Below, in pieces: positions 21,573 to 60,114 of a stretch of DNA of 64,000 nucleotides. The position numbers and the translations under genes are program-made. The stretch's first letter is position 1, and each line of letters opens with the position of its first letter. The notes under the pieces were generated by a model. It worked only from the letters and a program-made list of their open reading frames with translations, was not told where the DNA came from and ran no database searches. Source of the DNA: a virus; IMG/VR virus record IMGVR_UViG_3300019927_000008, positions 2,888-66,887 of that record. One strand, 5' to 3'.

Positions 21573-21719
21573 CGGAAGAGCCGGGATTCGAACCCGGAAT
21601 CCGGAGTGTACGGGGACTTACTGAAAGAGCGATTAGATAGCACTCGATCATCAGCACTCCCTACTCCGATGAACTTCAGTTTAACCCGAAGCGCCTTTGT
21701 CCAATTTGGCTACTCATCC
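21573..21719 (-). ncRNA. tRNA-like RNA (147 nt) with about 76-nt variable region and 8-nt anticodon loop
   Basis: Acceptor GGATGAG/CTCTTCC, Leu/Ser-type D arm, anticodon stem CTTCG/TGAAG with loop GGTTAAAC, T arm CCGGG-TTCGAAT-CCCGG; promoter at 21725-21755. Confidence 0.8.
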
Positions 21720-21724
21720 TTGCT

Positions 21725-21755
21725 GAAGAAATATTCAGGGGGGAGTTAAGTCTTT
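21725..21755 (-). promoter_or_regulatory. Viral promoter for the tRNA-like RNA
   Basis: AAAGACTTAACTC-N-TTTCTTC, ending 5 nt before the RNA. Confidence 0.65.
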
Positions 21756-21759
21756 ATTA

Positions 21760-22581
21760 CTAACGGTGGAACGGACAGGCTGAATCAGATGAATCAATAT
21801 CTTCGGTTGATGGAATGTTTCGTGTTCCCGTTTTACTAACCCACATTTCATCTCGGTAAACAGATGAATGTGAAGTGATTTTGGTCTGTGTAGTTTCTTG
21901 ATCCATTTTTTCTTTTTCAGTCATGGATCGTACATTTGCATCTGTTATCATTGAATCTCTTTTAAACGGAATTACCTGAACGAGAGGAGTCCCGACATCT
22001 AAAACACCTCGCCATTCACCTCCAGTCCAGAGGAATGGGGCATTTATTGTATTGAAGTATTGGTCCACATCAACTACTCCCGAAAAGGTCTGGAACAATT
22101 GATTCTGTCGGTTCATCGGAGAGGTGATAATAGCCGAATACCCATCCGGTGCTTTTATCGACCAATAATTGAGGAACTTGTAAATAGACCAATCATCGAG
22201 CGGGAACGAGTCCCCTCCAATTTGATCTGGACTATGGGAATCAATGAGGTCTTTTTTAAACCCCCAATCAAATCGAACATTGCTATCTTCATCTGATTCC
22301 ACGTTTACTTCCCCGGCAAGTGGAATGATCCACCCCATCGTCATGGCTTCCATGAAAGGGGCGCAACGCTTTACAGAGGAATCTGATGCTCGGTTCTTAT
22401 CGAGTTTGCCTTCGAGTTTTTTGTACCATTCGGGCAATACCTTGTTTGCAGGTATTGGCTCAGGGATAGCACCATAGAGTTCCTTTGGACAGACAAACTC
22501 GATGATCTCATCATCACCAGAAAGGTGTTTGTAGCCCGACAGGTCTTTGACTCGATCAGTAACGCTGGAGAAATCAAGCAT
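21760..22581 (-). CDS. DUF6065-like protein (dUTPase-like fold)
   Basis: KRCAPFMEAM-GWIIP, YKFLNYWSIKAPDGYS, SGVVDVD and GTPLVQVIPFKR motifs recalled from this phage family; own promoter at 22586-22616. Confidence 0.55.
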   Translation of the reverse strand: MLDFSSVTDRVKDLSGYKHLSGDDEIIEFVCPKELYGAIPEPIPANKVLPEWYKKLEGKLDKNRASDSSVKRCAPFMEAMTMGWIIPLAGEVNVESDEDSNVRFDWGFKKDLIDSHSPDQIGGDSFPLDDWSIYKFLNYWSIKAPDGYSAIITSPMNRQNQLFQTFSGVVDVDQYFNTINAPFLWTGGEWRGVLDVGTPLVQVIPFKRDSMITDANVRSMTEKEKMDQETTQTKITSHSSVYRDEMWVSKTGTRNIPSTEDIDSSDSACPFHR

Positions 22582-22623
22582 GAATAAACAATCAAGCTCC
22601 GGAGAGTTAAGTCTTACGTAACG

Positions 22624-22878
22624 ATGACGAAATTACGTGCTGTACTTGGAATCGCAGACTTCTTTGTTCCCGCAGATGTTCTAAGTAGCGTTCTTCTCGT
22701 CTTCACGATGGAGAACATCCTCGATCAACTGTTTTCAACTTACGTTCCGGCTGGACTGCAAACCGAAGCGTGGGTAGCGATCTATCTAATTGGCGCGTTA
22801 GTGGTATCAGGATTTAATTACGCAACTGCTGGCGAAGAAGAGCTGGAAGAACTTAGCGACGACTTCGACGATCTATAG
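22624..22878 (+). CDS. Small membrane protein (2-3 TM segments)
   Basis: Hydrophobic segments followed by an acidic tail. Confidence 0.5.
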   Translation: MTKLRAVLGIADFFVPADVLSSVLLVFTMENILDQLFSTYVPAGLQTEAWVAIYLIGALVVSGFNYATAGEEELEELSDDFDDL

Positions 22879-23370
22879 ATTACACCGGGTGGGTTCGGGG
22901 CGGGAGTTTGGCTTCACAGCAATGGTTACTCGGTGATCGCGGCTTCGGCTTGTTCTCTGATCCTGCCAGCTTCAACTTTCTCTGTCGGCTGGCGGGACTC
23001 ATCCTTTTCGATACGTTCCATTTCGGACATTACAAACGCAACTTGCCGAGGCCCTAACTCCATAACTTCATATTCTTTTCCAGACACAAAAGCTTCACCC
23101 CGTTACCCCTTGGGTTAACCCCTGAGGGGTAGCGGGGCTTTTTTGCTTTCCCTGTGTTGACCCCGATATGTTGACCCCACACCCTTCTCGCTGTAGAACT
23201 TCTTTGAGGGACTTGGGAAGTCATCCTTATTCTAACTGAAGAAGGATATATACGACCATTCAAGGAAATGTCCCCGGCTCCTATCCTCGTCCCCTATACG
23301 ACCTGAACGAGGTTCGGCACGCAACCACCCGAAGATGGTCGCTTCCGTTTGCGGTGGGGTGTACTCAACC

Positions 23371-23401
23371 TAAGAAAAGAGTCTCCGCACCTTAAGTCTT
23401 A
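23371..23401 (-). promoter_or_regulatory. Viral promoter driving a non-coding structured region
   Basis: TAAGACT-N17-TTTCTTA. Confidence 0.65.
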
Positions 23402-23403
23402 CC

Positions 23404-24102
23404 TTATGGCGCTCGGAGACTGTTGTTGTTCAGTACGTCTTTGTACGCCGAGAAGGTCAGCGGGGACCAGTCCATCGCTTCCGAGACGACAGCCTTTGCG
23501 AAAGCTTGCGCCTCGGGTTGGGCCTTGGCGTTGTCGCGGAGATCGAGGAAGTGCATCAGGCTCCGAGCATTGGCCGAGAACGAGAGGTTGACCTTGGTCC
23601 CGAGCGGGAGGACGTAGCGGGCCTTCTGCGGCTCTACGCCCTTCTCTTCGACGAGGTGATCGTAGGCATCGAAGGCGGCCTTGTAGTGACTATCGAAGGT
23701 CGTTTCGGCAGAGTAGTGCAGATCGGCTTCGTTCTCGTCAGGGTTCATATCGGGAAGGGTCGCGGCGGCCTCGTCGAAGTCCACGTAGCGCATGGACTGC
23801 ACGTCCCAACTCATGTGACGGTGGCGCGTGATCTGACGCTCGACGACCACCGAAAGTCCCTCTACAGCGAAGAAGGCCTGCGGGTGTTCGAAGGGACCGA
23901 AGTGGCCTCGGTAGAGCAGGTCTTCGATTAGCGCCGGGAGGTCTTTGTCGGTTTCCTCCATGGCCTTCTCGAAGTCAGCCCCGGCGAGACTGTCGTTCAT
24001 GTAGTCTCCCCTCGCCGCCATCGCCGCTGTCTCGTCCGGGTTCTGCGTACTTCGGTCAGTCTTCAGTTCAACGGTGAAGCCGTAGGTGTCGTTTTCGTAC
24101 AT
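23404..24102 (-). CDS. thyX: Flavin-dependent thymidylate synthase
   Basis: ThyX signature RHRHMSWDVQSMRY and GHFGPFEH; start moved to the ATG at 24102 (TAATG coupling). Confidence 0.95.
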   Translation of the reverse strand: MYENDTYGFTVELKTDRSTQNPDETAAMAARGDYMNDSLAGADFEKAMEETDKDLPALIEDLLYRGHFGPFEHPQAFFAVEGLSVVVERQITRHRHMSWDVQSMRYVDFDEAAATLPDMNPDENEADLHYSAETTFDSHYKAAFDAYDHLVEEKGVEPQKARYVLPLGTKVNLSFSANARSLMHFLDLRDNAKAQPEAQAFAKAVVSEAMDWSPLTFSAYKDVLNNNSLRAP

Positions 24103-25143
24103 TAGTAGTCCTCGTGGATGATTGCTCGGTTGTAGTTCGGGGCGATGCAAATGCACTCAGAGTCGGAAATATTGAGTGTCATTCCAGCGCCAGTCCCGTA
24201 GTTAACTTCTCGCTTCACTTCTCTCGAACATTGCGGACAGGGTTTCGTTCCCATTACGCGAACAGGAGTCCGAGGATGAAGCCGACGACGAGCGAGACGA
24301 CGTGGAAAGTCTGTTCTGCGATGACGAAGGTTTCGTTCATGATTGGGTTTCTTCGAAGCTGTGTTCGTCGCAACGGTGCGCCTTGAACGTTCGACTGTGG
24401 GTTCGGTCCCACCAGTCGTCTCGTTCTTCAACTACGGTGTGGAAGCCGACTCTCGCAACGTGAGTAGCTTCGTTGCCGCAGTAGCAGTCTCTCCGGATCG
24501 AGAGGTCCGGTGGTAGATCGGAGTGGCGATCTTTGTAGTAGCTAACCGAGACGACGTTGTAGCGGTCGCACTCGATGTAGCTACCTTCACCGTGAACGTG
24601 ATCGGTCACTCTATGCTATTCCGAAATCGGTCGAACAGCTCCATCCAACCGTATTTCTCGACGAGCGGTTCCATCGGTTCTATTTTGTCCGTTTCGAAAG
24701 CGTGCATGAACTTCATCAGCTCTTTTTCCGAAAGGACATCTTCCTCTTCACCTTCGACTATCTTTTCAGCCGCTTCTTCGCTGAAGCCGATGGCTTTCAG
24801 TCGTTGGACTCTGACGCTAATGTCGCTCATGTGCTTGCCTCGCAGAACGGACAGATGAACGTTCCAACTGCGTTCTTCACGAAGAACATATCGTGTTCTT
24901 CGCAATACTTTTCGAGCATCTGATCTTCGTAGTTGCTTACGTCTACCATGAAATTTATTTGAATGTTTCCAGCGTAACCTGTCGTGAGTCTGGTTCGAAT
25001 TTCTTACACCGACCACCACAGGCCGGGCACTTCACATCCTCCGGGCCGTGAGAGTAGATGTGCGCTCGTTCTCCTCTCAACAAACTGGCGCTGAGGAAGA
25101 GAACGAGAAAGATGGTGAGCGCCATAAGGTAGAGAAGAGGCAT

Positions 25144-25560
25144 CTACATGAACGCCCCCAACTCTTCGTTGCCTCCGGAGAGGGTTGATGGGTTTTGCTC
25201 TCCGGCAATGTAATCATGGAGATTAACCCCGTGATCTAAGCTAATTTCTCTCCACTTGCAGTCTCGTTTTTTGCTTGGGCCTTCAGACTCTTCGGCTTCT
25301 GCCCTTAGATAATCTCCATCAAAGACAGTATATTTTTCATCGTCATTATTGTAGAAAATATAGTCTATTTTTGAAGGCATATCAACTACAAGTTTCGCTA
25401 TAAACGAAGCAAGATTATTGTAGGCGTACTCTTTCGCAACGAGAATGTACGGATTATCCATGAATTTTAATCCATAGCCAATAGTCCCGTACCCATCTTC
25501 GAATTTTCTAACTTGAGTAAACCCCATTTTGGTCAATTGTTTGCAGGCTTGATGTATCAT
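25144..25560 (-). CDS. Hypothetical protein, AT-rich, possibly nuclease-fold
   Basis: Clean ORF just downstream of PolB; atypical composition; no decisive motif. Confidence 0.4.
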   Translation of the reverse strand: MIHQACKQLTKMGFTQVRKFEDGYGTIGYGLKFMDNPYILVAKEYAYNNLASFIAKLVVDMPSKIDYIFYNNDDEKYTVFDGDYLRAEAEESEGPSKKRDCKWREISLDHGVNLHDYIAGEQNPSTLSGGNEELGAFM

Positions 25561-25561
25561 T

Positions 25562-28300
25562 TTACATGAACGCCTCCAGACCGCTTTGGCTTTGTGTCTG
25601 ACCCATCATCGCCGCCTTGGGTTCGACCCCGAAGGAGTCGAGGATGTCTTCCATCGGATTTTCGAGGCACTTTCTCTGCATCTCCTGAACGTCAACCCGA
25701 AGACCATCCTCGGGAAGGTCACGGTGGGAGTCGAAGGCGATCACGTCAACTTCCTCACCCTCAACGGTGAGGCCGGGTTTGACCTTCGCACGCTTCGGCT
25801 TGTCTCCTTTCGCAAACTCTACGTCGAGGAGGTGGTTGGCGAACCATGCCGCTCGCGGCGCTTCGCCCCGAGGATGGTCGCCGGTCTTCGACCACGAATA
25901 GTAGTCGTCCTTCCCGGCCTTCTCGCGGTCGATCTTCTGACCAAGACCCTGCGGGATTCCGATGTAGTCCCAATCAGGATCAGCGGCGTCGATGGAACAC
26001 GCCGCGTTGTGGACCGTCTCGACGACATCTTCTTTCGAAGCTCCACGAACGATCTGCTCAAGAGCCTGCTCCTGAGTCTCCTTCGTGAGCATCGAGAAGT
26101 TCGACTTCACGCATTGGTAGCCAGTCACGTCGAACTTGCCCTTTCCGTCAGCGACTTTCTGGTCGTGGTCGTCTCCCTCGTCCCACATCTTCAGGTAGGC
26201 GTAGTTCTTCTTCGAACCCGACATGAAGAACCGCTTGGCCCTCATCTCGACCTCGATCTCCCACCGATTGTCCGACCGTGGGATGTTGTAGTCATCGCAC
26301 AACGGCGGGTAGACTTCGTTGGTCAGATCATCACAGGAATCCTTGGCGTAGTCCAGAGTTTCCTCCTGTGACCAATCATCGGGGAACTGAACGTAATTTG
26401 AGTCCGTGTCCCCGTAGACCACTTTCACGCCATCTGCGGCCTGATTTCGGAAGTATTCCGCCGTGGCCTTGATAACGTCTTGGCCGGTGAGGGTGATCGC
26501 GGCGGCATCGTCCGGGTTGTAAAGCGGGGACCGCGCCCACCCCGAGTAGCCGTAGAAGCTGTTGTAGATCGTCTTCGTGACGTTGTAGGCTTCTGCGGCT
26601 TCGGCCCACTCAGAAGTACCGTAGGTCGCGGCGTTCCGCTCGGCCTTAAACTCGGCCTTCACTTCGTGGTACTCGTCCACAAGCTCTCGGATGATGCCGT
26701 CTACGTCGGTACGGAAGCATTGGCCGTTTGCGGCTTCCACGTAGTCCCACGAACCATCCTCCCGCTTCCCGACTTCTTCCATCATCGCCCACCACTCTTC
26801 GGAGCCTTTCTCTGCCTCGATCCGGGTGTCCGGAGAGGCGTTGAGCATCCATTGAGTCATGGGGTAGAGGCTGGCGAGGTCCACGCCACAGACGTTCCTC
26901 TTGACCCCGGAGAACGCACTCTCAACGTGAGCGCCTTCGTAGTTCACATCGTCACCGCCACTCTCCATCGCCTCGATGACGTGGGGATTATCGTAGGCGG
27001 TTATCATCGCAATGTCGTGTTCCCGGCACTTCCGGCGAACAGACATCTCGATGTACTCGTTGTTCTGATGGGTCCGACGCCAATCGACCCCCACCATGTC
27101 CTTCAGCCGCTTCTTGAAGCCGAGGACGTTCTCTTCTTCGTTGATCTCGACCGTGAGGCGTGTGTCCTTGACGTTGTAGTTCACGAAGCGTACCGGATCG
27201 TCTCGGTACATCTCGAAGTACCCCATATCGGGATGCTCGATCTTCGTGTCGTCCAGCTTCTCTTCCGCAACGTCGTCGAGTTTGAACGAACGAGGTTCGG
27301 TGAACTTCGTGTCACCCCACCCGTTCATCAGATCGTATAGCGCCCTTCCCTTTATCGAGGGGAGGAAGTCGTCACCACGGCGGTCGATCTCAACCTCTGA
27401 CTCCCGACTCAGACGCTCCGGAGAGCAACTGAGGTTCTTCATCCGCTGGATGATGTGCGGGATGTCGAAGCCGTCGTTAGCCTCGTCCCCGCTGTTCCAG
27501 CCAGAGATGATGTCGGGGTTGGACTCTCGGACCCACGCCGAGAAGGTGCGGAGCATCGCCTCTTCGCTCTGCTTCGTGACGAGCTTGTCCGGTTCGTCCA
27601 ACCCGAGGTCGGACAGGCCGAGCTTCCCGTCTTCCCACGCCGAACGAGCGATTTCAGGAAGGTCGAAGAAGTCCGGAATACTCTCGCCATCGAGATCGAG
27701 GAAAACGATCTGCTCCTGTTCGTAGGAGTCGTAGGCCGCGATGCTCAGTATCCTTGCCTCACCGGGGTCGGGGAACCCTGCATCTCGGTCGTCCGTCTCG
27801 ATGTCAAGAGTCAAGACGCGAGGAGTTACGTCTTTCACCTCAACAGGTTCGATCTCTTCTTTTTCGACCACGACATGACCGTCGCGTTCGGGCTTCGGGA
27901 CTCGAACGCCGGTCTTCACTCCGGAGTCAACACGGAACTGTTCGGTGAAGATCGCGTCGGCTCCCCACGTTCGATCAAACTCCTGACGGAGGTTGCGAAC
28001 CGAATGTGGATACTTGGCGATAACCTTCACCAAGTCTTCCGGAGAGTCGTCGAAGCGTTCAGAGAGCGGATCAGTCTCTACCTCTTGGTACTCGATCAGC
28101 TCTTCGTAGTCGGCAGGGCGCACCTTCTCGCGTTCTTCCGCTCGGGCGAGGAAGTACGGAGGGAAGTTCCGAACGGTGATCGTTCGGGTTTCGTGGTCGC
28201 GGGTTCGACCGTAGAGTCGGACAACTACTTCATCGTAGCGAGTGTCGCCGGGGTAGAGCGTTTCGGTCGTCGTGATGTAGACATCTTCTCTTTCAGTCAT
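25562..28300 (-). CDS. polB: Family B DNA polymerase with 3'-5' exonuclease
   Basis: ExoI DIETD, ExoII SGWNS...FD, polymerase motifs DLASLYP, KTIYNSFYG and YGDTDS; no intein. Confidence 0.97.
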   Translation of the reverse strand: MTEREDVYITTTETLYPGDTRYDEVVVRLYGRTRDHETRTITVRNFPPYFLARAEEREKVRPADYEELIEYQEVETDPLSERFDDSPEDLVKVIAKYPHSVRNLRQEFDRTWGADAIFTEQFRVDSGVKTGVRVPKPERDGHVVVEKEEIEPVEVKDVTPRVLTLDIETDDRDAGFPDPGEARILSIAAYDSYEQEQIVFLDLDGESIPDFFDLPEIARSAWEDGKLGLSDLGLDEPDKLVTKQSEEAMLRTFSAWVRESNPDIISGWNSGDEANDGFDIPHIIQRMKNLSCSPERLSRESEVEIDRRGDDFLPSIKGRALYDLMNGWGDTKFTEPRSFKLDDVAEEKLDDTKIEHPDMGYFEMYRDDPVRFVNYNVKDTRLTVEINEEENVLGFKKRLKDMVGVDWRRTHQNNEYIEMSVRRKCREHDIAMITAYDNPHVIEAMESGGDDVNYEGAHVESAFSGVKRNVCGVDLASLYPMTQWMLNASPDTRIEAEKGSEEWWAMMEEVGKREDGSWDYVEAANGQCFRTDVDGIIRELVDEYHEVKAEFKAERNAATYGTSEWAEAAEAYNVTKTIYNSFYGYSGWARSPLYNPDDAAAITLTGQDVIKATAEYFRNQAADGVKVVYGDTDSNYVQFPDDWSQEETLDYAKDSCDDLTNEVYPPLCDDYNIPRSDNRWEIEVEMRAKRFFMSGSKKNYAYLKMWDEGDDHDQKVADGKGKFDVTGYQCVKSNFSMLTKETQEQALEQIVRGASKEDVVETVHNAACSIDAADPDWDYIGIPQGLGQKIDREKAGKDDYYSWSKTGDHPRGEAPRAAWFANHLLDVEFAKGDKPKRAKVKPGLTVEGEEVDVIAFDSHRDLPEDGLRVDVQEMQRKCLENPMEDILDSFGVEPKAAMMGQTQSQSGLEAFM

Positions 28301-28498
28301 CGCCCATGTCTCCGATGATGAGGCCAGCGCCGTACTGGATCACACCGTTACGGACGATCCCACAGTCCCCACACTCGATTTTCCCGTTTCCTTGTTTTCG
28401 AGACACCCGAATCTCTGCTTGACCGTTGCACTCCGGACAGAGGACGATGGCGTCGAACTTTAGCGTCTCTTTCTGAGCGGCTACGTCTCCGAGCATGA

Positions 28499-28873: not shown

Positions 28874-28950
28874 GATTGATTGTTGTGTCCCGCCGCCACG
28901 GTGCGCTCACCGGGGGCGGTTTCGAGACACAGGAGGTAGGGCCTCCTTCT

Positions 28951-28981
28951 AAAGACTATACTCGCGTAGAGTTAAGTCTTA
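28951..28981 (-). promoter_or_regulatory. Bipartite viral promoter for the polymerase operon
   Basis: TAAGACT-N17-AGTCTTT; the TAA is the stop codon of the upstream kinase gene. Confidence 0.7.
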
Positions 28982-48487: not shown

Positions 48488-48491
48488 TTGC

Positions 48492-50306: not shown

Positions 50307-52501
50307 TAGTCGTCAGCCGCCTTGAAGTCAGCATCGAGCGTTTTGTAGTGCGTCTTCTCTACTTCGATCTTCTCGGCTCGCTCTCGAAGCTCCGCTTTCA
50401 CAGCGTTCGAAGAGACACCCGCTCCGGTCGAGAGCTTCTGAAGTAGCCGTTCCGCCTCTCGATCATCGAGGGTGATCGTTTCTTCTCTCTTCGTCTGAAC
50501 GTCTTTGTCTGTTTCTTCGCTGTTCTCGTGCGTCTCCCAACCGACTGTGATTTGACTCATGTTATTTTTGAGGTGCGATCAGAATTATTCCAAGGATCGC
50601 CGCCGACAGCGACCCGACCATCGCTCCGAAGGATATTGCTGTGAAGACACCCCCACCATAGCCTGTCACATCGAGGAGGGCCATGGTTATGACTGCGGTT
50701 AGGGCTGTCCAACACGACGCTAAGATCATTTCGTGGTCTGTCATGGAGTGAATCGAAGTACCCACTTTTTCCAAGAGATCACTACTTCGCCGCTGTCGGG
50801 ATCGGGGTCAACACTAACAAGCTCCGATTCTTCGTCACCGGAGACGAATCTTTCTTCGACTTCGATCACGGCCTTCTCGATGTAGTCGTCGAGTTGATCC
50901 CACTCACCTCCTATCTCGGGAAGGTCGTGTTCCGTTCCGGAGAGATCGGTCAGAGTGTCGTACTCGAAGCGGTACGTCTTCGTCTCTTCGCACTCCCACC
51001 CTTCACCGTAGCGCCCTTCGACGTAGCGACATTGGAGGTGGAAGATCGCCGCTCCATCCTCGATGATGGGGTCGGCTCGGTGGTCATCCATCTCCCACTC
51101 GTGTTCGTGGTGATGGGGTTCGATGATGCCTCCCCGGATGAGGTCGCGTCGGGAAGTACCGGGTGGGTAGCCCCCCATCTACAACCCTCCGTTAAGGCTA
51201 CTGTTCTGACACTCGGTACAGACATCGCCTATGTTCAGAACGGCGTTGCTACACCCTATTTTACGACACTTGATTACACTCATTACAGGATTTCCTTCCC
51301 ACAGTCTTCGCACCGCGCTTTCTGCACCGGAGGCTCGTCCGGGTGGCGTTGCACTTTACCACTCTCGATGTTCACCGATCCACAGTACGGGCAATCACCG
51401 AGGCCATTGATTTCCAGAAGTGCCCCCGTTGAGTTGATCTGGATTCGGTCATCATCGAGAATCCATTTCAGGGCTTTCGCTTCACCAACAGCACGTTTCC
51501 CTCCACGTTCTTCTGGAATGTATTCACCGTCCAGTTCAGCCAGCTTGTCTCGAACTTCTTTTTCTGATTTCATGACTTATGTCTCCGAAGTTGCGTCTTA
51601 CCGAACGAAGTCCCGAAGGTTCGACAGCCCGGCCTTCCCGAGGCCATCAACATCCAGAAGCTCACCATCATCCGCTTGCTGAATGTCCAGAGTGGTACTG
51701 TAGCCGTCATCGTGGAGATTATCAGCCGTCTTCTCCCCGATGTAATCGACTTCGGACCAGTCCATCTCATCGAGGTCCATCATGTCGATGCCGGAGTCGG
51801 GTTTGTGTTCGAAGTGCCCCGCTTCGATCTCGTTGTTGAAGGACACTCTTCGCTCCATCCGGTGTGTGTTGTCCTTGTTCCGACCCGGAGTGTCACTCCG
51901 TAGCAGAACGATCTCTTCGTCGATGTAGAGAATCTGAACGTGTTCGTTGTGTCGCGTTTCGTAGACCTGTCCAGCTTCGGGTTCGACTTGAGTGATCTCT
52001 TTCATCATGTATCGTGGTATGCCGCGATCCAGTCTTCGTAGCCTCGCTCTTCTGCCTCGTCGTTCAGTAGACTGACGAGGAACGTTCGGTGGTGATCCTT
52101 CAGCGGCCACGGATCACTAACCATCATCAATTCGAGGAGTGTACGAAACTCCCAATAGCTCAGATCAGGGTTCGCATCTCTCGGGGTTTTCATGAATCAG
52201 GCTCGTTGAGGTCCACGTCCTCCCACTCGTCTTGAAGTTCTTGCTTCGTGATGCTGTTCTCGACTACATCAGCTAACTCTCGGATGTAGTTCGCCAACGG
52301 CGTCGGGTCTTCCTCGAAGCCATCTTCTTCCTCGATGGCGTCAGCAAGTTCCCGAGCTTGGTCAGCTTCGTAAGCCGCTTCTTCACCACCTGCGGTGATG
52401 ATAACCGTGAATCCACTCTCGGTCGTTGTCGCTTTGATTTGGCCCGTCTCTTGGTTCAGAATACTTTTCGTCACGTACTGCTGTCGTTCTGTTTCTTTCA
52501 T
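50306..52501 (-). other. Cluster of small accessory ORFs, including an HhH-motif protein (51598 region)
   Basis: Coupled ORFs; VDYIGEKTA and VDGLGKAGL helix-hairpin-helix repeats. Confidence 0.6.
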
Positions 52502-52535
52502 GTAGCGTGGTTTTCGGTTCCCATTATAAGGACTT

Positions 52536-52598
52536 GGGCATCGTCAGGGCAACAGCGTCCATCTCGTTGCCAACACCGGGAAGCCCGGTGTTTCGCCC
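52536..52598 (-). ncRNA. Type II hammerhead ribozyme HHR1
   Basis: GGGC-GAAA-C[ACCGG/CCGGU]GUU^[GGCAAC/GUUGCC]-CUGACGA-U-GCCC; loop I GGAC can pair with tail GUCC. Confidence 0.9.
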
Positions 52599-52738: not shown

Positions 52739-53068
52739 CTATCCATCATCTTGAACCACATCGGTTGCCGCTCGTTCAGCGGCGTCAGCAGGCTGTTCAG
52801 CGAGGGCCGCGTGTTCTTCCACCACGTCGATGAAGGTGTTGATGATCGTCTCCGAAGTCGCTCGCTTAGAGACGCTTGTGCCTTGCTTGGCGTGCGTCTC
52901 TTTGACGAGTCGGTCGAAGGCGAGGGAATCATTCTCACGAAGCTCCTGTGCTTCGTCAGCGAACGAAGCGCAGGCCGCCGCCGCTCGGAACGCCGCCGTG
53001 TTCCGAACCAGATCAGCCAGTTCGTCGTTGCTCATACTGCCGAGAGCTTGTGGGTTGTCGTCAGCCAT
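52739..53068 (-). CDS. Hypothetical protein
   Basis: First gene after the promoter and mini-tRNA; strong codon bias. Confidence 0.6.
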   Translation of the reverse strand: MADDNPQALGSMSNDELADLVRNTAAFRAAAACASFADEAQELRENDSLAFDRLVKETHAKQGTSVSKRATSETIINTFIDVVEEHAALAEQPADAAERAATDVVQDDG

Positions 53069-53080
53069 TGTAACCTCAAG

Positions 53081-53118
53081 GGGTAGCGGGGAGTCGAACC
53101 CCGCGCCGCCACTTACCC
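53081..53118 (-). ncRNA. Mini-tRNA (acceptor plus T arm) at transcript start
   Basis: GGGUA-AGUGGCGGC-GCGGGG-UUCGACU-CCCCGC-UACCC directly after the promoter at 53119-53149. Confidence 0.75.
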
Positions 53119-53139
53119 TAAGACTCTACTGCTTTAGAG

Positions 53140-53829
53140 TTAAGACTTACGGTCCCACAACACCTCCGGAAGAACTTCTCGATAGAAGGCTGTATGCCGA
53201 GCGTGTTCCTCTCGCTGGTAGTCGTAGATGGCCCATTGGATCAGGAATGGAGGCATCCCGAGAGGGTTCGGAATCTCACCGATTATCTCTTCGCAGGTTT
53301 CGAAGTAGTCTTTCGAAGAGGTGAAGTTGAGAGCGTTTCCGGTTGACTCTTCAAGACCTGCGAAGTTAGCGACGTTCGAATCAACGCAGATGTATTCATA
53401 GAGTCCGGACATCGCCAGCATGAACGAAGCCTTCCGATAAGAAACTCCTTTCAGCTCATCGACGACGACTTCGAGAAGTTCTTCGAAGCGACCTTCCCGA
53501 GCATGGCATCGAACTGCCTCTGCCAGTAAGTCCCACTCCGTGTTTTCGAAGCCGTTCGTGATCCACTCTGTCTTTTGGTTCCCGTAGACAGTCCCGGCGG
53601 CGGCCTTCCCGAGGTCGCTCCCCGAAGCCCACTCTGTAAAGGAACGCTCGTGACGTTCCAGTCCGGTTTGGATAGAGAAGACAGCGAAGACATAGCCGTT
53701 CCGTAGTATCTCTTCGGCCTTCTCTACGGTTCCGGAAAGGAGAAGTGTTCGGGTCTTTTCTGCGCGAGTCAACGACTGAACGTAATCTGGATGGTGGTCA
53801 CTCATCCAGCCTTCGAGTGTTTCATACAT
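53140..53829 (-). CDS. OGG-like HhH DNA glycosylase/AP lyase
   Basis: LKGVSYRKASF...ICVDSNV parallels the archaeal Ogg GxGxKEASHF...IIDRHI motif, with catalytic Lys and Asp. Confidence 0.55.
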   Translation of the reverse strand: MYETLEGWMSDHHPDYVQSLTRAEKTRTLLLSGTVEKAEEILRNGYVFAVFSIQTGLERHERSFTEWASGSDLGKAAAGTVYGNQKTEWITNGFENTEWDLLAEAVRCHAREGRFEELLEVVVDELKGVSYRKASFMLAMSGLYEYICVDSNVANFAGLEESTGNALNFTSSKDYFETCEEIIGEIPNPLGMPPFLIQWAIYDYQREEHARHTAFYREVLPEVLWDRKS

Positions 53830-53845
53830 AAGGGATGGTTGTGCC

Positions 53846-54331
53846 CTACGGGAGAACCGAACGAGTCCCGTCGAGCTTCTTCTGACTGCCGCAACGCCGG
53901 TCAGGTTCGTTCTGCTGAAGCCACTCATCGTACTCGGGATAGTGGTCAGCGAAGCGAGTCTGATACTGTTCGTTCAATGCTTCGATGGCGTCAAGTTCGG
54001 TTGGCGACCAAAGGCCAGAATTGAGAGCCGGTTCTCGGTGGTGGAGATGAGGCCACGCTGTAACGTAGACGAGATGCCCTTCTTCGTGGAAGCCGACTAT
54101 GAGGTAGTATGCCACACCAGCACCCCATACCTTCCGAAAGCAAGCACATCCATCACCGTTGTCTCGTAAGTCCCCCTTCGTAACTGCATCGTAGATCACC
54201 TTCCCGTTCAGGAACCGCTTCCGTTCCTTGAACCGCTGAAGGAAGTGCGGGAGCGGTGAGTAGCGAGAAGGGCGGCGGGGGTAATTCGATGGGTCGAACG
54301 CCCGGCTTCGGTCGAGGGGGAGGGTCTTCAT
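53846..54331 (-). CDS. Hypothetical protein
   Basis: Clean ORF in an operon chain. Confidence 0.5.
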   Translation of the reverse strand: MKTLPLDRSRAFDPSNYPRRPSRYSPLPHFLQRFKERKRFLNGKVIYDAVTKGDLRDNGDGCACFRKVWGAGVAYYLIVGFHEEGHLVYVTAWPHLHHREPALNSGLWSPTELDAIEALNEQYQTRFADHYPEYDEWLQQNEPDRRCGSQKKLDGTRSVLP

Positions 54332-54771
54332 GCTGGCCGAACGAAGGCGTCAGGATCGAGCATGGCACGTTCGATGATGAACTGTGCCGTCTCGTATCCC
54401 TTCCCTTCGGGAGCCTCAAACTCGGCAGAGTCGATCTCCCGAGTCGGTCCATCTTGGTAGTCGATCTCCGCCGCTTCCGGACTCTCCGTAAGTTCCGTGT
54501 TCGGAGAGTTTGACGGAGCGGAGTTTTGTACGAAGACGGAACTTCGTGTTTCGTAGAACAGCGAGAGGTGTGTAACGTCGCTCATTGGTCGTTCCTCCAC
54601 GTCATCGCTTCAGCGAAGCGGCCCATGATCGCGCCGAGGCTGGTCGTGTCGTACTGTTCTTGAATGTTCACGTCGCTGTAACTATAGCCGCCGGATGTAG
54701 ACTGCGTGTTTTTGTGTTCCATTAGGGATTTAGACTGCGTGTCACACTTTCCAACCCCCCTCAAGGGTTGA

Positions 54772-54838
54772 TGGCCTTCCTCTTCATGGGGAACGCGGCC
54801 AGTCGTTCCCGACGCCGGGAAGCCCGGCGTTTCGTCAT
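54772..54838 (-). ncRNA. Variant type II hammerhead ribozyme HHR2
   Basis: C-GAAA-C[GCCGG/CCGGC]GUC^[GGGAACG/CGUUCCC]-C(A)UGAAGA-G; loop UGGCC pairs with tail GGCCA; directly after the promoter at 54838-54868. Confidence 0.65.
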
Positions 54839-54870
54839 TAAGATCGAAGCCCGTCGCTCCGAGTCTTAGC

Positions 54871-56034
54871 CTACTGCGAGGTGGCTTCCTCCAGACGTTC
54901 TTCGGCGTCGTTGATCCGGCTCCGAGTTTCCTGCGGGATCGGTGCGCCGTTCGCCGCGTTCTGGATGTCCTGACGGCGGCGGAAGAAGGCCCGAAGGTCG
55001 TCGTAGACATCTCGGGGAGCGACCTGTGCCTGCCGAAGGCCACGCTCCTTGGCGACCTGTCGGACGGCGGCTTCCACCGAAGGAAGCTCGCTGTAGCTCC
55101 GGTACACCTCTTCGAGAAGGTCCGGGTCCACCTCGAAGACGCCTTCGAACTGCTCCTGATCGGTGAAGACCGGCTCCGTGATGTAGCTGAAGAACCGCAT
55201 CAGCATCGCCAGCTCGTTCACCGAGCAATGGCAGTACGGGTTGAAGAGAAGCCCGTCAGCGAAGTCCGGCTCGACGTTGAACGCCGACCGAATGTCGTGC
55301 TTGTCGTCGGAGTGGGAGTGCTGAAGGCCACACTCATCGACCGGACACTCGAAGGATCGAACCGAAGAAGAACCACCACCGATCATGGACTGAGCGTCCT
55401 GAAGAACGCCCATCACTTCGCCGTCCACGTCGGAGTCCATGTCGGACATGAACTGTTCGAGGGTGTTACTCATGCTCTCACTTCGACCCTCATCGAGCGT
55501 GCTGTGGTTCCCGAGGCTCCACATCCGAACTTCGTAGCTCTCTTCGTCGTCTTCAGTCGCGGTCTGTTCCTCGTCGTTGCCGTCGCCGTTCTGCATGAAG
55601 TCGTACATGGTGGTGTTGTCTTCGTCGTCGTCGGTTTCTGCACTTTCCGTCTCGTCGTCGCTGAAGAGGACGGGTTCGATCTCGGGGTCTTCGTCGGTTG
55701 CCTCACTTTCCGACTCGTCGCCTTCGAACAGTTCGGGGTTGATCTCTACGACTTCGTAGTCGTTGAAGAGGTCCCGAGAGTTTCTGACCGAGGCGAAGTA
55801 GTGAGCTTTCTCTTCGTCGTCGTAGACACTATCATTGTCTATCGCTTCTTGAACGTCACCAGTTTCCACGTTGACGATTGCGAACTTCGTTTCACTACTC
55901 CGTTCTTCTACGTGGTAGGAACCATCTCGGACGATGGATCGAGTCATCCGAGACGCCCTACCCTTTGCATCACCTTTGTCGTCGTAGGTTTGGTACTCTG
56001 TACCGTCTTCGCCAACTACTACGTATTCCGTCAT
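54871..56034 (-). CDS. Hypothetical acidic protein with C/H metal-binding cluster
   Basis: CPVDECGLQH and CHC motifs; follows a mini-tRNA leader. Confidence 0.6.
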   Translation of the reverse strand: MTEYVVVGEDGTEYQTYDDKGDAKGRASRMTRSIVRDGSYHVEERSSETKFAIVNVETGDVQEAIDNDSVYDDEEKAHYFASVRNSRDLFNDYEVVEINPELFEGDESESEATDEDPEIEPVLFSDDETESAETDDDEDNTTMYDFMQNGDGNDEEQTATEDDEESYEVRMWSLGNHSTLDEGRSESMSNTLEQFMSDMDSDVDGEVMGVLQDAQSMIGGGSSSVRSFECPVDECGLQHSHSDDKHDIRSAFNVEPDFADGLLFNPYCHCSVNELAMLMRFFSYITEPVFTDQEQFEGVFEVDPDLLEEVYRSYSELPSVEAAVRQVAKERGLRQAQVAPRDVYDDLRAFFRRRQDIQNAANGAPIPQETRSRINDAEERLEEATSQ

Positions 56035-56080
56035 GGGTTGTGTCCCGTCTATTTCTGCCGCGCCTCGGGGTGGCGCAAAG

Positions 56081-56119
56081 CCCGTCCCCGGAGTCGAACC
56101 GGGGGAAGACCATCACGGG
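56081..56119 (-). ncRNA. Mini-tRNA (acceptor plus T arm) at transcript start
   Basis: CCCGU-GAUGGUCUUC-CCCCGG-UUCGACU-CCGGGG-ACGGG directly after the promoter at 56121-56151. Confidence 0.75.
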
Positions 56120-56148
56120 TTAAGACTCGGGTTGCAGGGAGTTAAGTC

Positions 56149-56820
56149 TTATCTTCTATCCGGAGTGTTTTCGATGGCCCACAACGCCTTCGCCACGAAT
56201 TGAAGCTCCGAGATGGTAAGTCGATACTCACCAACCTCCCGTTTGACGTGATCTTCGGGAGACTCGATTTCTACGTCGTAGGCTTCGACCTTCGAACCAG
56301 CCCCGATGATCGAACCGTCACGGTTCTTGCTGATGACATCGGGATGGTAGAAGTCACCTTCGTAGGTCAACAGAACGTGACCGTTGATGAACCACCCACC
56401 TTCCCGCTCTTCGATCCGCTCCGACAGCGGCTCGACGAAGGCTTCGAGAGCTTCGACCCTCACCATGTCTTCCCGCACCTTCTCGAAGAGATTGATGATG
56501 GGTTGAACGCTCTTTCCATCCCCCTCTTCGTACATCTCTGCCATCGCCTCGATCAGGTCGGTCTTGTGATGAGCGCCGAGGGTCAGATCAGTATTTCCAA
56601 CCCGAAGGGTGTAGGCCTCATCATTTGAAGGGATGATGGTTACTCTCGGCTCTTCTTCGGCTCCTTGAGACTGCCAGACTTCGTTTCCTGCATCGAGAAG
56701 CCCGGCAAGGCCATGACCGTAGATCAGCTTGTTGTAGTCCGAAGACTTCGTTCTGGTTACTGTGCTTCCATCATCCGTCATAACGAGGTAGTTAGTCCCG
56801 TTATCGTCTAAGACTTGCAT
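56149..56820 (-). CDS. Hypothetical protein
   Basis: Clean ORF downstream of the GHKL ATPase. Confidence 0.55.
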   Translation of the reverse strand: MQVLDDNGTNYLVMTDDGSTVTRTKSSDYNKLIYGHGLAGLLDAGNEVWQSQGAEEEPRVTIIPSNDEAYTLRVGNTDLTLGAHHKTDLIEAMAEMYEEGDGKSVQPIINLFEKVREDMVRVEALEAFVEPLSERIEEREGGWFINGHVLLTYEGDFYHPDVISKNRDGSIIGAGSKVEAYDVEIESPEDHVKREVGEYRLTISELQFVAKALWAIENTPDRR

Positions 56821-57015
56821 TGTTACGTTTGCTGTTTCGTTTGTGGGGGATTCTCATTTTGTCCGGTTTGGTCGTACAATTCCATTGCATCGAAGCACTC
56901 GTTGCATGAGAAGCAACGGAATGTGTATCCAGACTTATCTCGGTTCACTTGCCCTTCGCACTTCGGGCAAACCCAACGCCACGGTTCATTAGGATCGGGT
57001 TTTCCCCGATCTGCA

Positions 57016-59856
57016 CTACTGATTTGAGAGGGTTTCACGTAGCTCTTCGCCGCTCTTCTTTGCCGGGTCGATCCCGAGATCGTGGAAGCCGAGGTACAAC
57101 TGCGCCTTCTTGTCGTCCAACGACGAAGGCATCATGTCGTAGATTTTGCTACCGTCTTCCCACTTCGGAGTGCTGTCCATCAGCTTGTACGTCGAGAGGG
57201 AACCGGAGAGTTTGTACCACTTCGAAGGGTTACGACGTTCGTACTTGCTCCGACTAAGCCGAAGGCAAGTGAAGTTCGGACGCCGAAGACTCTCTCCGTT
57301 ACGACTCAAGTAATTGAAGACCCATTGCGCTCGGTCCAAGACCTCCTTTCCAGCGACGGCGTAGAGGGTGTCTCGCTTCTCCGCTTCGTCAACATCGCTC
57401 GGATCATCGTCGCTGTGATAACCACCATCGTAGTTATCGAGGACTTTCAGCCAGTCGATCTGATCCCGAACGTCGTCGAGAACACGTTCTCGAACCCCTT
57501 CCATGTCGTCACCGAGGAGCTTCGTCGAAGTCGCGTGACCCCTTACTTTAGGCTGGTAGGTCAGAACCACCAACCGATCATCCGTCACCAACTCTTCGGG
57601 CGTCATCGCTCCGTCTTCGGTGGCGATCAGAGTGGACCGTGACCACTCTTTGTATTCCTCGATGGTGACGACGTTATCGACTCCTTCGAACTGCTCACGC
57701 TCTTTCTTGCTGACGCAAGCGATGGCGGCGTAGTCAGCCATGCCGTAGTGATCGCTGATGTTAGGCCCCTTGCCCTTCCCGAAGAGAATCAGCTTGTCGT
57801 GACCACCGATCCGCTTCCCTTTGTTGAGTCGATCTCGAACCCGCTTGATCGAGGTTCGCTGGTCGATGGAAGACGAATCTCCGTCGCTTCGAATCTTGAG
57901 GTTTCGTTCCTCGACCTTCTCGGCCTTCGACTTTCGACCGAACTTCTTGCCCTTCTCAACACGATCCCGGTGAATGGAGTCAGGAACGTCGTAGTCGTGA
58001 TCGTCGTCCTGCTTCAGCGGGACATTCTTCAGCTTCTTGAAGCCGAAGTTCTCTTTGAACGGAGTGTACTTCGAAGAAGACACCACGATGATTTCTACGT
58101 CATCATGGGTGTTCTTCGCAACCTTCCAGTATTTCGTGAAGTTCCCTCCGGTTGAAGCCGCCATGTAGACTTCTCCGGGGTCGTTCTTCAGAAGCTCACC
58201 GAGCATCATCTCCCGTCGCCGTCGCTTCTTCGTCGAAGAAGACGCGCTTCGATGACAATGCTCGATCTTATTGAACAGCCCGTAAAGCTGATCGAGACTT
58301 TCGTCGTCGAAGTCCGGAAGTTCATCTCGCTGGTTCATGAAGCCCTCGAACTTCCGACGCTTCTTGAGAACACGACGATGGCCGTGGTAGTTGACCATCT
58401 TCTTGAAGAGGTTCCAGTCTTCGGGCTTGCCTCGAATAGCTTCAGCGGGATGGTCAGCCTCTTCCATCCGCTCTGCGATCTTGCTGACCTTGCTCACTTC
58501 TTTGGACTTCACCGTTTCCTGAACGTGAGCGAAGAACCGCTTCGTCTCCGAAGACTTCTTGAGTCGGTCCCGGTCCCCGGTGGGTTGAGGCATCGGAACG
58601 TCGTCGTCGTGAAGTTTGGCGATCTGATCTTCGTGCTTCGTCGTTCGGTACACCTTGTTGTTGTAGTGGTAGAAGCCACGGTGGGGACCGGCGACGATCC
58701 GACTCTGTTCGTCGTGAAGCTGAATCGCACAGTCCCAAAACGTCTTGATGTTGTACCGGGTGTTTCGGTCGATGGCGATGGAGACGAGGAAGGTGTCTTC
58801 ATCATCGCTACTTCCGTATCCCGAAGTGTCTATCACATCAGGACCGGCAACCACCGAAAACTCACCGGGGCGATCCACCACTACTTCAGGATCGTCGTAG
58901 CTCTCGATGAAGTTCGAGGCTTCATACTCTTCTTCGACCGGGGTAGCTCCGGCATCGTGTTCCCGGTACAGCACCGGGATACGAAGCTGTTCGGTGTAGT
59001 CTTCGATCCAACTCTGAAGGTTGGATAGGTCGAAGCTATCCTGAACAGGGAGCTTGAAGCGAGTCCCGAAGAACCCATCTTCGACTTCACCGGGAAGGGC
59101 GTTGGCTCCGCCGAGGTAGCTGTAAGCCCGGAAGCCTTCTCTGGTTCCGCCGTTTTCGCTTGGCTGGATGCTCCGAGTCTCTACTTCCATCCCGCCATCC
59201 TTTCCGTGAACCAGAGCCGACGACTCGGAACCGACACCGAACATCCCGCCGGTTTCTTCGTCGTCACCATTGCCACCTTGGAAGATTGTGTTGAAGTCTC
59301 CCGCAAATTCGACGGGAGTCATGCCGATCCCGTTGTCTTCGGTGATGATCCGCCGAGCGTCGAGGAACACATCGAAGGTGATCGTCGGATCGTAACCGAG
59401 GGTTCTGGCCGCCTCAACCACCTCACTAATGGGTCGAGGGACTTCCATGACTCGAACGTCAGAGGGATTATCCATGTCGTCTTTCGACGCCACGGTTTCT
59501 CCGGTTTCAGCATCGACGAACTTCGTGATGGTGAGCCACCCTTCGGGGTACTCCGGGGAGTGCCGGATCAGGTCTTTACAGCGTCGAATACAGGCCGTCT
59601 CGTGGTTCTGGAGCCATTCCCGAGGCCATGCCTTGTCGCTTTCGTAGATGAAGTCCGAGAGAAATTCTCCTGCTCCCTTCGCTGACTGCGTTTCGAGAGC
59701 CGACCGTCCGATCTCCTGAACGAGCTGATGATCCTCACCAACCGCTCCGATGTCCTTCACTTGAGTCGAACCCCACGACTTCGACTCGTCGATAACCGGG
59801 GCTTCAGTTTCCGCTTCTTTCTGCTCCATCGTCGTAAGTTCGGTGTTGTCACTCAT
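57016..59856 (-). CDS. Large GHKL (Hsp90/MORC-like) ATPase, rIIA-like architecture
   Basis: REWLQN, EDNGIGM, GMFGVG and GTRF Bergerat-fold motifs in the N-terminal third; 946 aa. Confidence 0.8.
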   Translation of the reverse strand: MSDNTELTTMEQKEAETEAPVIDESKSWGSTQVKDIGAVGEDHQLVQEIGRSALETQSAKGAGEFLSDFIYESDKAWPREWLQNHETACIRRCKDLIRHSPEYPEGWLTITKFVDAETGETVASKDDMDNPSDVRVMEVPRPISEVVEAARTLGYDPTITFDVFLDARRIITEDNGIGMTPVEFAGDFNTIFQGGNGDDEETGGMFGVGSESSALVHGKDGGMEVETRSIQPSENGGTREGFRAYSYLGGANALPGEVEDGFFGTRFKLPVQDSFDLSNLQSWIEDYTEQLRIPVLYREHDAGATPVEEEYEASNFIESYDDPEVVVDRPGEFSVVAGPDVIDTSGYGSSDDEDTFLVSIAIDRNTRYNIKTFWDCAIQLHDEQSRIVAGPHRGFYHYNNKVYRTTKHEDQIAKLHDDDVPMPQPTGDRDRLKKSSETKRFFAHVQETVKSKEVSKVSKIAERMEEADHPAEAIRGKPEDWNLFKKMVNYHGHRRVLKKRRKFEGFMNQRDELPDFDDESLDQLYGLFNKIEHCHRSASSSTKKRRRREMMLGELLKNDPGEVYMAASTGGNFTKYWKVAKNTHDDVEIIVVSSSKYTPFKENFGFKKLKNVPLKQDDDHDYDVPDSIHRDRVEKGKKFGRKSKAEKVEERNLKIRSDGDSSSIDQRTSIKRVRDRLNKGKRIGGHDKLILFGKGKGPNISDHYGMADYAAIACVSKKEREQFEGVDNVVTIEEYKEWSRSTLIATEDGAMTPEELVTDDRLVVLTYQPKVRGHATSTKLLGDDMEGVRERVLDDVRDQIDWLKVLDNYDGGYHSDDDPSDVDEAEKRDTLYAVAGKEVLDRAQWVFNYLSRNGESLRRPNFTCLRLSRSKYERRNPSKWYKLSGSLSTYKLMDSTPKWEDGSKIYDMMPSSLDDKKAQLYLGFHDLGIDPAKKSGEELRETLSNQ

Positions 59857-60053
59857 TTTCGTAGAGGGGGGTAACGTCGATTGCTTTCACGCCATCCATT
59901 CCTTCGAACCGCTCATCGGGGTGTTCAAAAGTGACACTCCAATGGGGATCGAACGCCGGTGATTGCTTACTCCAATCAGGATTATCCGGAACGACCTGAT
60001 AGACGTAGGCAACTGGTTCTTTGTCTTTCATTCGAGATTAGTCCCTAAGTCAT

Positions 60054-60114
60054 GGGCATCATCAGGGGAAGGGCGACTAACTCCCTCCCAACAGGGACGA
60101 TCCCTGTTTCACCC
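60054..60114 (-). ncRNA. Type II hammerhead ribozyme HHR3
   Basis: GGGU-GAAA-C[AGGGA/UCCCU]GUU^[GGGAGGG/CCUUCCC]-CUGAUGA-U-GCCC; loop AGUC pairs with tail GACU; starts right after the promoter at 60115-60145. Confidence 0.9.

Follow-up and report, generated by a model that had tools for sequence, protein, structure and literature searches.

The stretch of DNA analysed here (the window, 64,000 nucleotides) covers bases 2888-66887 of a 71.8-kb IMG/VR virus, record IMGVR_UViG_3300019927_000008, that is rated 96% complete. The plus strand carries the late genes, up to ~21.3 kb, and early, middle and replication genes occupy the minus strand from 21.5 to 64 kb. On this minus strand, at the heads of operons and between cistrons, we find small folded RNA elements, or devices, of several kinds: type II hammerheads at 60.1 and 52.6 kb with a degenerate relative at 54.8 kb, mini-tRNAs at 56.1 and 53.1 kb, a bulge-helix-bulge (BHB) at 39.5 kb and further tRNA-like sequences at 41.3 kb and, as a stand-alone gene, at 21.6 kb. 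A first-pass annotation of the sequence had proposed these elements as a processing toolkit of the viral operons; here we describe their structures, their conservation in related viruses and the promoter-like motif that precedes several of them.

Judged from its sequence, this uncultured virus is a Hafunaviridae-like halovirus. In PolB it shares 57% identity with HSTV-2, HRTV-7 and HCTV-6 (Hafunaviridae, Mincapvirus) and 43% with the HF1 group, and its gene order is syntenic with HSTV-2. A megablast search with an 8-kb stretch of the window against a phage collection gave no nucleotide-level match to deposited phages. Seven relatives of the same clade were defined as the loci around homologs of a 946-aa HSP90-like protein (49-58% identity by tblastn); a locus search with this protein as the single query returned no relatives, and the loci were obtained via protein homologs and their encoding contigs.

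Hammerhead ribozymes

A scan of the whole 71.8-kb genome with a hammerhead descriptor (GAAA, hairpin III, UH, hairpin I, CUGANGA, 0-1 nt, stem II) gave two matches in all, the type II hammerheads at 60114-60054 and 52598-52536; both are intergenic and on the minus strand. Shuffled genomes gave a mean of 0.03 matches, and none of 100 shuffles held two or more. The first element (60040..60114, minus strand) combines a stem II of GGGU/GCCC, an extra U after A9, GAAA, a 6-bp stem III, a GUU site, a 7-bp stem I, CUGAUGA and a pseudoknot AGUC/GACU, with a predicted cut at 60090/60089 and the ATG at 60031. Its orthologs lie upstream of the HSP90-like gene in relatives L015, L017, L018 and L021. The second element (52522..52598, minus strand) is intercistronic and begins 1 nt past the upstream stop codon, as do its orthologs; it has the core CUGACGA, a pseudoknot GGAC/GUCC and a predicted cut at 52572/52571, ahead of an ATG at 52501.

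Three hammerheads had been listed initially, and these two are canonical, but the one at 54.8 kb (54764..54837, minus strand) is degenerate. It retains stem III, GUC, stem I and a pseudoknot UGGCC/GGCCA, with a notional cut at 54811/54810, but its core reads C-A-UGAAGA, with an A at or inserted next to C3, and its stem II is unpaired. The core residues (CUGANGA, GAAA and UH after stem III), complete in the 60.1- and 52.6-kb copies, are thus not complete at 54.8 kb. The site is orthologous to canonical hammerheads in seven relatives, and we regard the element, from its sequence, as a copy in decay. As variants of the HF1/HF2 type that carry insertions near C3 have been reported to be active at high Mg2+ (PMC3088659), some activity of the 54.8-kb copy is possible.

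Each of the seven relatives carries two to five hammerheads within 22 kb, all on the coding strand; this count includes matches to R1, a clade-specific model that we built from a 19-sequence hammerhead alignment. In that alignment 94% of the helix cells are paired and 14 of the 21 pairs show compensatory changes, compared with 39-55% pairing in slid controls, with the caveat that the selecting descriptor already demanded minimal stems. Outside the descriptor lies the 4-bp pseudoknot between loop I and the 3' tail, paired in 85% of cells with compensatory changes: the loop I bases AGUC, GGAC, AGCC, GGUC and GGCU covary with the four bases 3' of stem II. It corresponds to the type II pseudoknot of Perreault et al. 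(PMC3088659). In the window, R1 scores 84.4, 67.7 and 27.8 bits at 60.1, 52.6 and 54.8 kb, respectively, the last with mismatches at C3 and stem II. Beyond its training set the model recovers seven further copies, including the published HF2 hammerhead (31 bits) and the 54.8-kb element, and it finds no hammerhead in the searched stretches of HSTV-2, HRTV-7 and HCTV-6, over the full records of which the Rfam Hammerhead_II model (RF02276) gave only noise. Exact-pattern scans of IMG/VR yielded, with a first hammerhead pattern, only chance matches in coding regions and, with a second, 23 stretches, one of which is a true family member by R1.

With Rfam itself, the whole window gave only tRNAs at the gathering threshold. 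The 52.6-kb copy matches RF02276 over the full model with 31.3 bits, below the gathering score of 37, and this match surfaced only when short stretches were searched, the whole-window E-value mode having lost the hammerheads to its filters; the 60.1- and 54.8-kb copies were not reported by the model. We attribute the sub-threshold scores to the extra U and the short stem II. Apart from these orthologous sites, the relative L021 has an extra type II hammerhead of another sub-design (3076-3146, plus strand), far upstream in its early region, with a stem II of GGUC/GACU and a 5-bp pseudoknot GAGCA/UGCUC.

Mini-tRNA leaders

The mini-tRNAs at 56.1 and 53.1 kb share one design, in which a linker of 9-10 nt connects a 5-bp acceptor with a 6-bp T stem closed by the loop UUCGACU, and their stem sequences are unrelated to each other. 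In the element at 56081..56119 (minus strand), the acceptor CCCGU/ACGGG is joined by a 10-nt linker to the T arm; downstream follow a hairpin GCGCC..GGCGC, then GGGACACAAC and the ATG at 56034. The element at 53081..53118 (minus strand) has the acceptor GGGUA/UACCC, the linker AGUGGCGGC and the T arm GCGGGG-UUCGACU-CCCCGC, and lies 12 nt ahead of the ATG at 53068. R2, a model of the family, scores them at 38.8 and 41.6 bits; these are its only matches in the window, and true tRNAs are not picked up.

Every clade relative has two such mini-tRNAs at syntenic junctions, one before the homolog of a 387-aa gene and the other heading the next operon. Syntenic copies of the 56.1-kb element are found in seven of seven relatives, and the ortholog of the 53.1-kb element in L017 precedes an 81%-identical 109-aa gene. 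Most copies are immediately preceded by ...AGTCTTA. Among 18 aligned sequences (alignment A3) 97% of the helix cells are paired, with compensatory changes in 10 of 11 pairs; the acceptor (5 bp) and T stem (6 bp) are contiguous on the 3' strand, the loop is UUCGAYU, within the UUCRANY pattern of tRNA-like processing elements, and the linker RAAGGGCGGC is conserved in sequence. CCA, which blocks tRNase Z, is not encoded at the 3' ends, where the flanks read CUUU, CUUG, CGUU, ACUG and similar.

The family extends to Mincapvirus, with copies in HSTV-2, HRTV-7 and HCTV-6 (among them L002:37120-37158 and HRTV-7 35487-35525); variants with the loop UUCACGA are likewise present in this genus. The family is also represented in HF2 (L028, AF222060.2), as two unannotated leaders on the plus strand at ~2906-2944 and 4375-4414, each behind an AAAGACT motif and each followed by a hairpin and GACACCG-AUG. 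An IMG/VR exact-pattern scan with a mini-tRNA pattern returned mostly unrelated sequences.

The third mini-tRNA proposed initially, at 41.3 kb (41255..41304, minus strand), is a weaker call. Recognized by its T-loop motif, it is a D-armless tRNA-like element with an acceptor CCGAGU/ACUCGG, a hairpin with the loop AAUCAG and a T arm with UUCAACU; it is matched by neither Rfam nor R2, its minimum free energy (MFE) fold differs, and it lies upstream rather than downstream of promoter copies. A block, GGTAATCAGGCC, is common to it, the HSTV-2 group and the syntenic site L024:1219. The element belongs to a looser D-armless class built from three parts (acceptor, small hairpin carrying the block GGUAAUCAGGCC, T arm), whose sites are 41304-41255, the syntenic place in L024 and the region upstream of the Mincapvirus HSP90-like operon.

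An intercistronic bulge-helix-bulge

The BHB proposed at 39.5 kb withstood scrutiny. The sequence at 39476..39550 (minus strand) has an exact hBHBh' MFE fold (z = -4.65), made of an outer helix of 14-17 bp, a central helix CGCU/GGCG, the bulges UUU and UCA, one on each strand, and an inner helix of 11-12 bp, and it shares the anticodon-stem/intron topology of canonical archaeal introns. EndA, which cuts BHB motifs, is predicted to cleave at 39528/39527 and 39494/39493, releasing a 34-nt predicted intron. After the element come GACACAACC and the ATG at 39463; no promoter lies ahead of it. As a loose BHB descriptor gives ~600 chance matches per genome, the summed length of the flanking helices is the sole discriminating measure: it is 29 bp here, against maxima of 14-17 bp in ten shuffled genomes and at most 17 bp elsewhere in the genome.

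In six loci picked solely by homology to the downstream 486-aa protein, the BHB is present in four, as an exact 3-4-3 arrangement with changed helix sequences in L022, L024 and L027 and in relaxed form in L025, and it was not found in the other two, L023 and HSTV-2. Its helices show compensatory changes in 14 of 29 pairs. The gene for the ligase RtcB is absent from the whole genome of the virus, HF2 encoding one, so any ligation of BHB or hammerhead ends would need the host enzyme.

A promoter-like motif ahead of the devices

The window contains 14 copies of the motif AAGACTYAAS, where chance would give 0.6, and all of them are co-oriented with local transcription: 12 are on the minus strand, within the minus-coded region, and two on the plus strand, within plus-coded stretches. 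Some 12 bp downstream the motif has a second half-site, (A)GTCTTAGG, and when extended by it (...TCTTW) it gives six exact matches against none expected. The copy AAGACTCAAGTT-N-AGAGTCTTA at 60115..60144 is followed at the next base by the 60.1-kb hammerhead; the copies AAGACTTAACTC-N-GAGTCTTA at 56121..56150 and AAGTCTTAACTC-N-AGAGTCTTA at 53119..53148, located by motif search, precede the two mini-tRNAs; and a weak copy at ~54839-54868 stands directly ahead of the degenerate hammerhead. A further copy at 21754 has its predicted start site ~3-5 nt before a tRNA-like gene, and tandem copies at 41243 and 41209 follow the 41.3-kb element; all of these are on the minus strand.

The claim that most copies of the motif lead into a device was overstated. 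A recognized device stands behind five of the 14 (60144, 56150, ~54868, 53148 and 21754), a stable hairpin of no known class behind three (28980, 63914 and 41209), and nothing notable behind the remaining six. The second group includes a strongly folded leader (28889..28980 with its motif, minus strand; z = -5.0) that ends in GGGACACAAC 8 nt before the ATG. In this leader of an AAA-kinase-like gene, the part from 28889 to 28950 forms two hairpins. One of them, with a 3-nt AAA bulge beside a helix of 5 bp, looks like one half of a BHB, and the fold matched no known class.

By its layout we take the motif to be a putative promoter of the kind known from HF2, whose class I intergenic repeats are promoters according to reporter assays and primer extension, with a TATA box at -26 and a start at G (PMC8707807). 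The HF2 repeats read ..TCTTTAAGTC..N..CGTCTATTAGAG.. and the window motif, in the same arrangement, ..GACTTAACTC..N..AGTCTTAGGG... Both have a TATA-like core (CTTTAAGTC in HF2, ACTTAACTC in the window) and, ~26 bp downstream of it, a conserved initiator ..GTCT..TTAG, and both lie in early and middle regions, co-oriented with genes. The window motif differs in being shorter and in having the inverted-repeat half-sites AAGACT/AGTCTT. By this analogy, transcription would start at the G after TTA.

Fixed positions and exchange between genera

Where do the devices lie relative to the genes? All are on the coding strand, and they start either 0-6 nt after the end ...GTCTTA of the promoter-like motif or 1 nt behind a stop codon. 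That devices also lie between cistrons, as had been proposed, is borne out by the 52.6-kb hammerhead and the BHB, neither of which has a promoter in front of it. Along the genomes of the clade the order is fixed: a hammerhead with the HSP90-like operon, a mini-tRNA with a gene of ~300-390 aa, a hammerhead, a mini-tRNA with the next operon, and again a hammerhead. Structural conservation in related viruses had been named as a check on the initial proposal, and it is found: hammerheads, mini-tRNAs and the BHB are kept at the same junctions with compensatory changes.

Unrelated devices had further been said to fill the same slot. Within the clade this does not hold, each slot retaining its own device type, but between genera it does. 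At the junction after the homolog of the 387-aa gene (HSTV-2 gene 90), the clade has a hammerhead and Mincapvirus, represented by HSTV-2, HRTV-7 and HCTV-6, a mini-tRNA; upstream of gene 94 and the HSP90-like gene, Mincapvirus has a tRNA-like element and the clade a hammerhead. Thus, at two orthologous junctions, unrelated devices occupy one slot. In HF2, full tRNAs stand directly behind the repeats IR2 and IR3, heading long transcripts.

A common sequence is also seen where helices end and genes begin. The octamer GACACAAC lies 2-8 nt upstream of four operon starts on the minus strand (56044, 41137, 39476 and 28889), abutting the 3' strand of a helix; the same place is taken by GGGAC/UACAACCUUCC in relatives and by GUGACACCG-AUG in HF2. 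It may be a shared signal for translation or processing.

Possible functions of the devices

What can be discerned about the physiological role of these elements? From the conserved and covarying folds, their positions and their exchange between genera, we infer cleavage in vivo, the enzymes that would perform it, the transcription start sites and a benefit to the virus, and we consider it probable that the devices are RNA processing signals which define the ends of early and middle viral mRNAs. Hammerhead cleavage leaves 5'-OH and 2',3'-cyclic phosphate ends, and tRNase Z and RNase P cut tRNA-shaped elements. On this background, the promoter motif would drive minus-strand transcription such that a device occupies the very start of the transcript or begins right behind a stop codon. 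A hammerhead would then shed a 5' piece of ~25 nt ending in a 2',3'-cyclic phosphate and leave an mRNA that begins with a 5'-OH and is tipped by the stem I hairpin; a mini-tRNA would be removed at its 3' side by host tRNase Z and, in read-through transcripts, be cut at its 5' side by RNase P; and the BHB would be cut by host EndA, with or without ligation by RtcB. As the promoters lie inside long co-directional gene arrays, one cut could do two jobs, trimming the promoter-initiated RNA and detaching read-through RNA from the cistron before it. All copies of a message would in this way receive the same short leader, consisting of a hairpin, GGGAC(AC)AACC, 2-12 nt and the AUG.

The first-pass annotation had favoured another emphasis, in which the devices exist to swap the primary 5'-triphosphate for a 5'-OH or a 5'-monophosphate, for the sake of stability, translation or escape from sensors, and cutting between cistrons is secondary. 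Their placement lends this some appeal: starting 0-6 nt from the motif end, they would remove just ~25-40 nt, which has no obvious value as punctuation for promoter-initiated RNA, and unrelated devices hold this position and exchange between genera. However, the 5' ends would differ by device type, hydroxyl in one case and monophosphate in another, so that no single end chemistry appears to be selected; the 52.6-kb hammerhead and the BHB, which have no promoter, fit plain transcript punctuation equally well; and operon-internal promoters, at whose devices read-through RNA would be cut as well, account for the placement without recourse to end chemistry. We therefore hold this emphasis to be doubtful. 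Similarly doubtful is a broader version, an obligatory remodelling of 5' ends in Hafunaviridae-type haloviruses, whose early and middle mRNAs would be born with a disposable hammerhead, mini-tRNA or full tRNA at +1. Its removal would be needed to obtain a translated or protected, non-triphosphate, hairpin-capped leader (..GGGACACAACC-AUG) or to hide from host surveillance, and as nothing but the cut would count, one type of device could freely replace another.

Several observations weigh against a general processing role. Just five of the 14 promoter copies have a recognized device, the transcription start sites are carried over by analogy with HF2, the 54.8-kb hammerhead looks inactive from its sequence, and the hammerheads score below the Rfam cut-off or are missed by Rfam. 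The contiguous acceptor/T stack of the mini-tRNAs measures 11 bp, compared with 12 bp in tRNA, and their fitness as tRNase Z or RNase P substrates is assumed. Finally, the published primer-extension end T-4384 of HF2 falls 9 nt inside the mini-tRNA at 4375-4414, in its linker, and a promoter-initiated RNA might accordingly lack the 5' acceptor strand. This last point would be expected if transcripts started inside the devices and escaped cutting, so that only read-through RNA folds and is cut and the devices act as a switch for timing or insulation; any stem II partner of the 54.8-kb element, which would lie upstream of the predicted start, fits the same idea. We nevertheless consider it unlikely, since the class I start of HF2, which is the G that follows TTA and has its TATA box at -26 (PMC8707807), would, when transferred to the window, place +1 at the first base of the device, and T-4384 could be explained as a reverse-transcriptase stop at a modified base or structure. 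Might the folds instead work uncut, as protein-binding sites, elements of translation or stability or attenuators, or might the released pieces be functional small RNAs? The module of hairpin, octamer GACACAAC, 2-8 nt and AUG, which stands behind many devices and in device-less leaders, would suit such roles, as would the conservation of the linker RAAGGGCGGC beyond structural need and the retention of the degenerate 54.8-kb hammerhead. But both canonical hammerheads retain all catalytic core residues and the activity-enhancing pseudoknot, and the BHB keeps its exact 3-4-3 arrangement across relatives despite changes in helix sequence. As this is the conservation that cleavage requires, we regard uncut functions as quite improbable. 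Least of all do we expect the tRNA-shaped pieces to be relics of att sites or decayed tRNA genes devoid of an RNA role. A genuine att-like tRNA 3' half does exist beside the integrase gene, at ~47.3 kb on the plus strand, and in HF2 a partial tRNA-Thr is the attP site (PMC8707807); in the mini-tRNAs, however, the 5' acceptor strand is joined directly to the T arm, as in no tRNA fragment, both helices covary, and the elements lie always on the coding strand, at syntenic junctions and in three genera. On these grounds we rejected the mini-tRNAs as att relics.

Relation to known systems

The components each have a precedent: the HF1/HF2 hammerhead, the tRNA-like elements (t-elements) of Haloferax and a BHB intron in a Haloferax 5' untranslated region (UTR). 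The HF1/HF2 hammerhead lies 13 nt upstream of a helicase gene, with a mapped transcript 5' end within 3 nt of the cut (PMC3088659), and is annotated at 10292-10359 in GenBank AF222060.2. As in the window, it belongs to a member of the Hafunaviridae, has the type II topology with the pseudoknot between loop I and tail, and stands before the first gene of an early operon. However, HF2 has a single copy with an insertion near C3, whereas the window has two canonical copies and a degenerate one and its relatives two to five per 22 kb; moreover, many hammerheads of this clade abut the promoter motif and alternate along the genome with mini-tRNAs. In Haloferax, tRNA-like elements are cut in vivo by RNase P and tRNase Z (PMC4946936). 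Like the t-elements of Haloferax volcanii, which lie upstream of 5S rRNA or are used to release crRNAs (PMC4946936 and the papers of Holzle et al. cited there), the viral mini-tRNAs are tRNA-shaped signals in non-tRNA transcripts of haloarchaea. The t-elements obtain their exact ends via host RNase P and tRNase Z, of which the viral elements are predicted substrates; the latter form a distinct family of 38-39 nt, at +1 of putative viral promoters and before protein genes.

For the BHB, the closest parallel is the intron in the 5' UTR of HVO_1309 of Haloferax, which is cut by EndA (Schwarz et al. 2020, PMC7714728). Both are canonical BHBs in non-coding regions of haloarchaeal mRNA, the viral one being a candidate EndA substrate, but it is intercistronic and forms a compact 75-nt rod with its 34-nt predicted intron. 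In bacterial prophages, hammerheads occur in clusters that flank genes (Perreault et al. 2011, PMC3088659). There, as in mitochondrial tRNA punctuation and synthetic ribozyme/tRNA insulators, interchangeable cutting signals divide polycistronic RNA and the mRNA leader is uncoupled from the promoter; the window virus differs in its archaeal host, in having three mechanistically unrelated signals per genome and in the placement of many of them at the predicted transcription start and not just between genes. A further precedent for a BHB in mRNA is the intron of crenarchaeal cbf5.

The first-pass annotation had known of no such system in archaeal viruses. As for hammerheads, this was mistaken, the HF1/HF2 element having been published in 2011, but the literature that we searched describes neither a family of mini-tRNA leaders directly behind halovirus promoters, present here in three genera that include the cultured HF2, HSTV-2, HRTV-7 and HCTV-6, nor a BHB in a viral mRNA, nor the co-occurrence of three cutting principles in one genome, with a fixed operon order and an exchange of hammerhead and tRNA-like devices between genera. 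As cultured relatives carry the elements, the hypothesis is directly testable, and these viruses would offer a natural system in which to link mRNA 5' ends, processing and translation in haloarchaea. Long HF2 transcripts appear to be processed (PMC8707807), and devices of this kind may account for their showing as short RNAs on Northern blots. The elements could also serve as ready-made insulator parts for Haloferax genetics.

tRNA genes and neighbouring features

Besides these devices, tRNA-like RNAs had been noted at 21.6 and 42-43 kb. The latter are mostly ordinary tRNA genes: Rfam and ARAGORN place five at 42278..43499 (minus strand), comprising Gln-UUG, a gene with a short anticodon loop, Tyr-GUA, a gene with an AUC anticodon and a long variable arm, and Thr-UGU. 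The two non-standard members (42485-42557 and 43286-43371, minus strand), one with an anticodon loop of 5-6 nt and one with an unmodifiable-looking AUC and the long variable arm, may not decode. The sequence at 21.6 kb is a tRNA-like gene of 147 nt (21573..21719, minus strand) that scores 31.4 bits on the Rfam tRNA model (RF00005, cut-off 29). It has normal acceptor, D and T arms, an anticodon loop that is not of 7 nt and an insertion of ~70 nt, and it receives no ARAGORN call; preceded by a motif copy of its own, the gene is isolated at the strand switch and heads no operon.

The tRNA 3'-half-like sequence near the integrase (47270-47330, plus strand) consists of a T arm, GGTTCAAATCC, and an acceptor strand at the 5' edge of the integrase open reading frame (46186-47349, minus strand), and is probably the attP site; HSTV-2 and HRTV-7 likewise have a tRNA 3' half just upstream of the integrase. 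A plus-strand copy of the promoter-like motif is followed, at 44937-45170 (plus strand), by five to six iteron-like repeats CTGTAGGG(N)ACnC spaced by 14-92 bp. These repeats sit in a small plus-strand island that holds an ERCC4 nuclease gene, and could be an origin or an array of regulator-binding sites.

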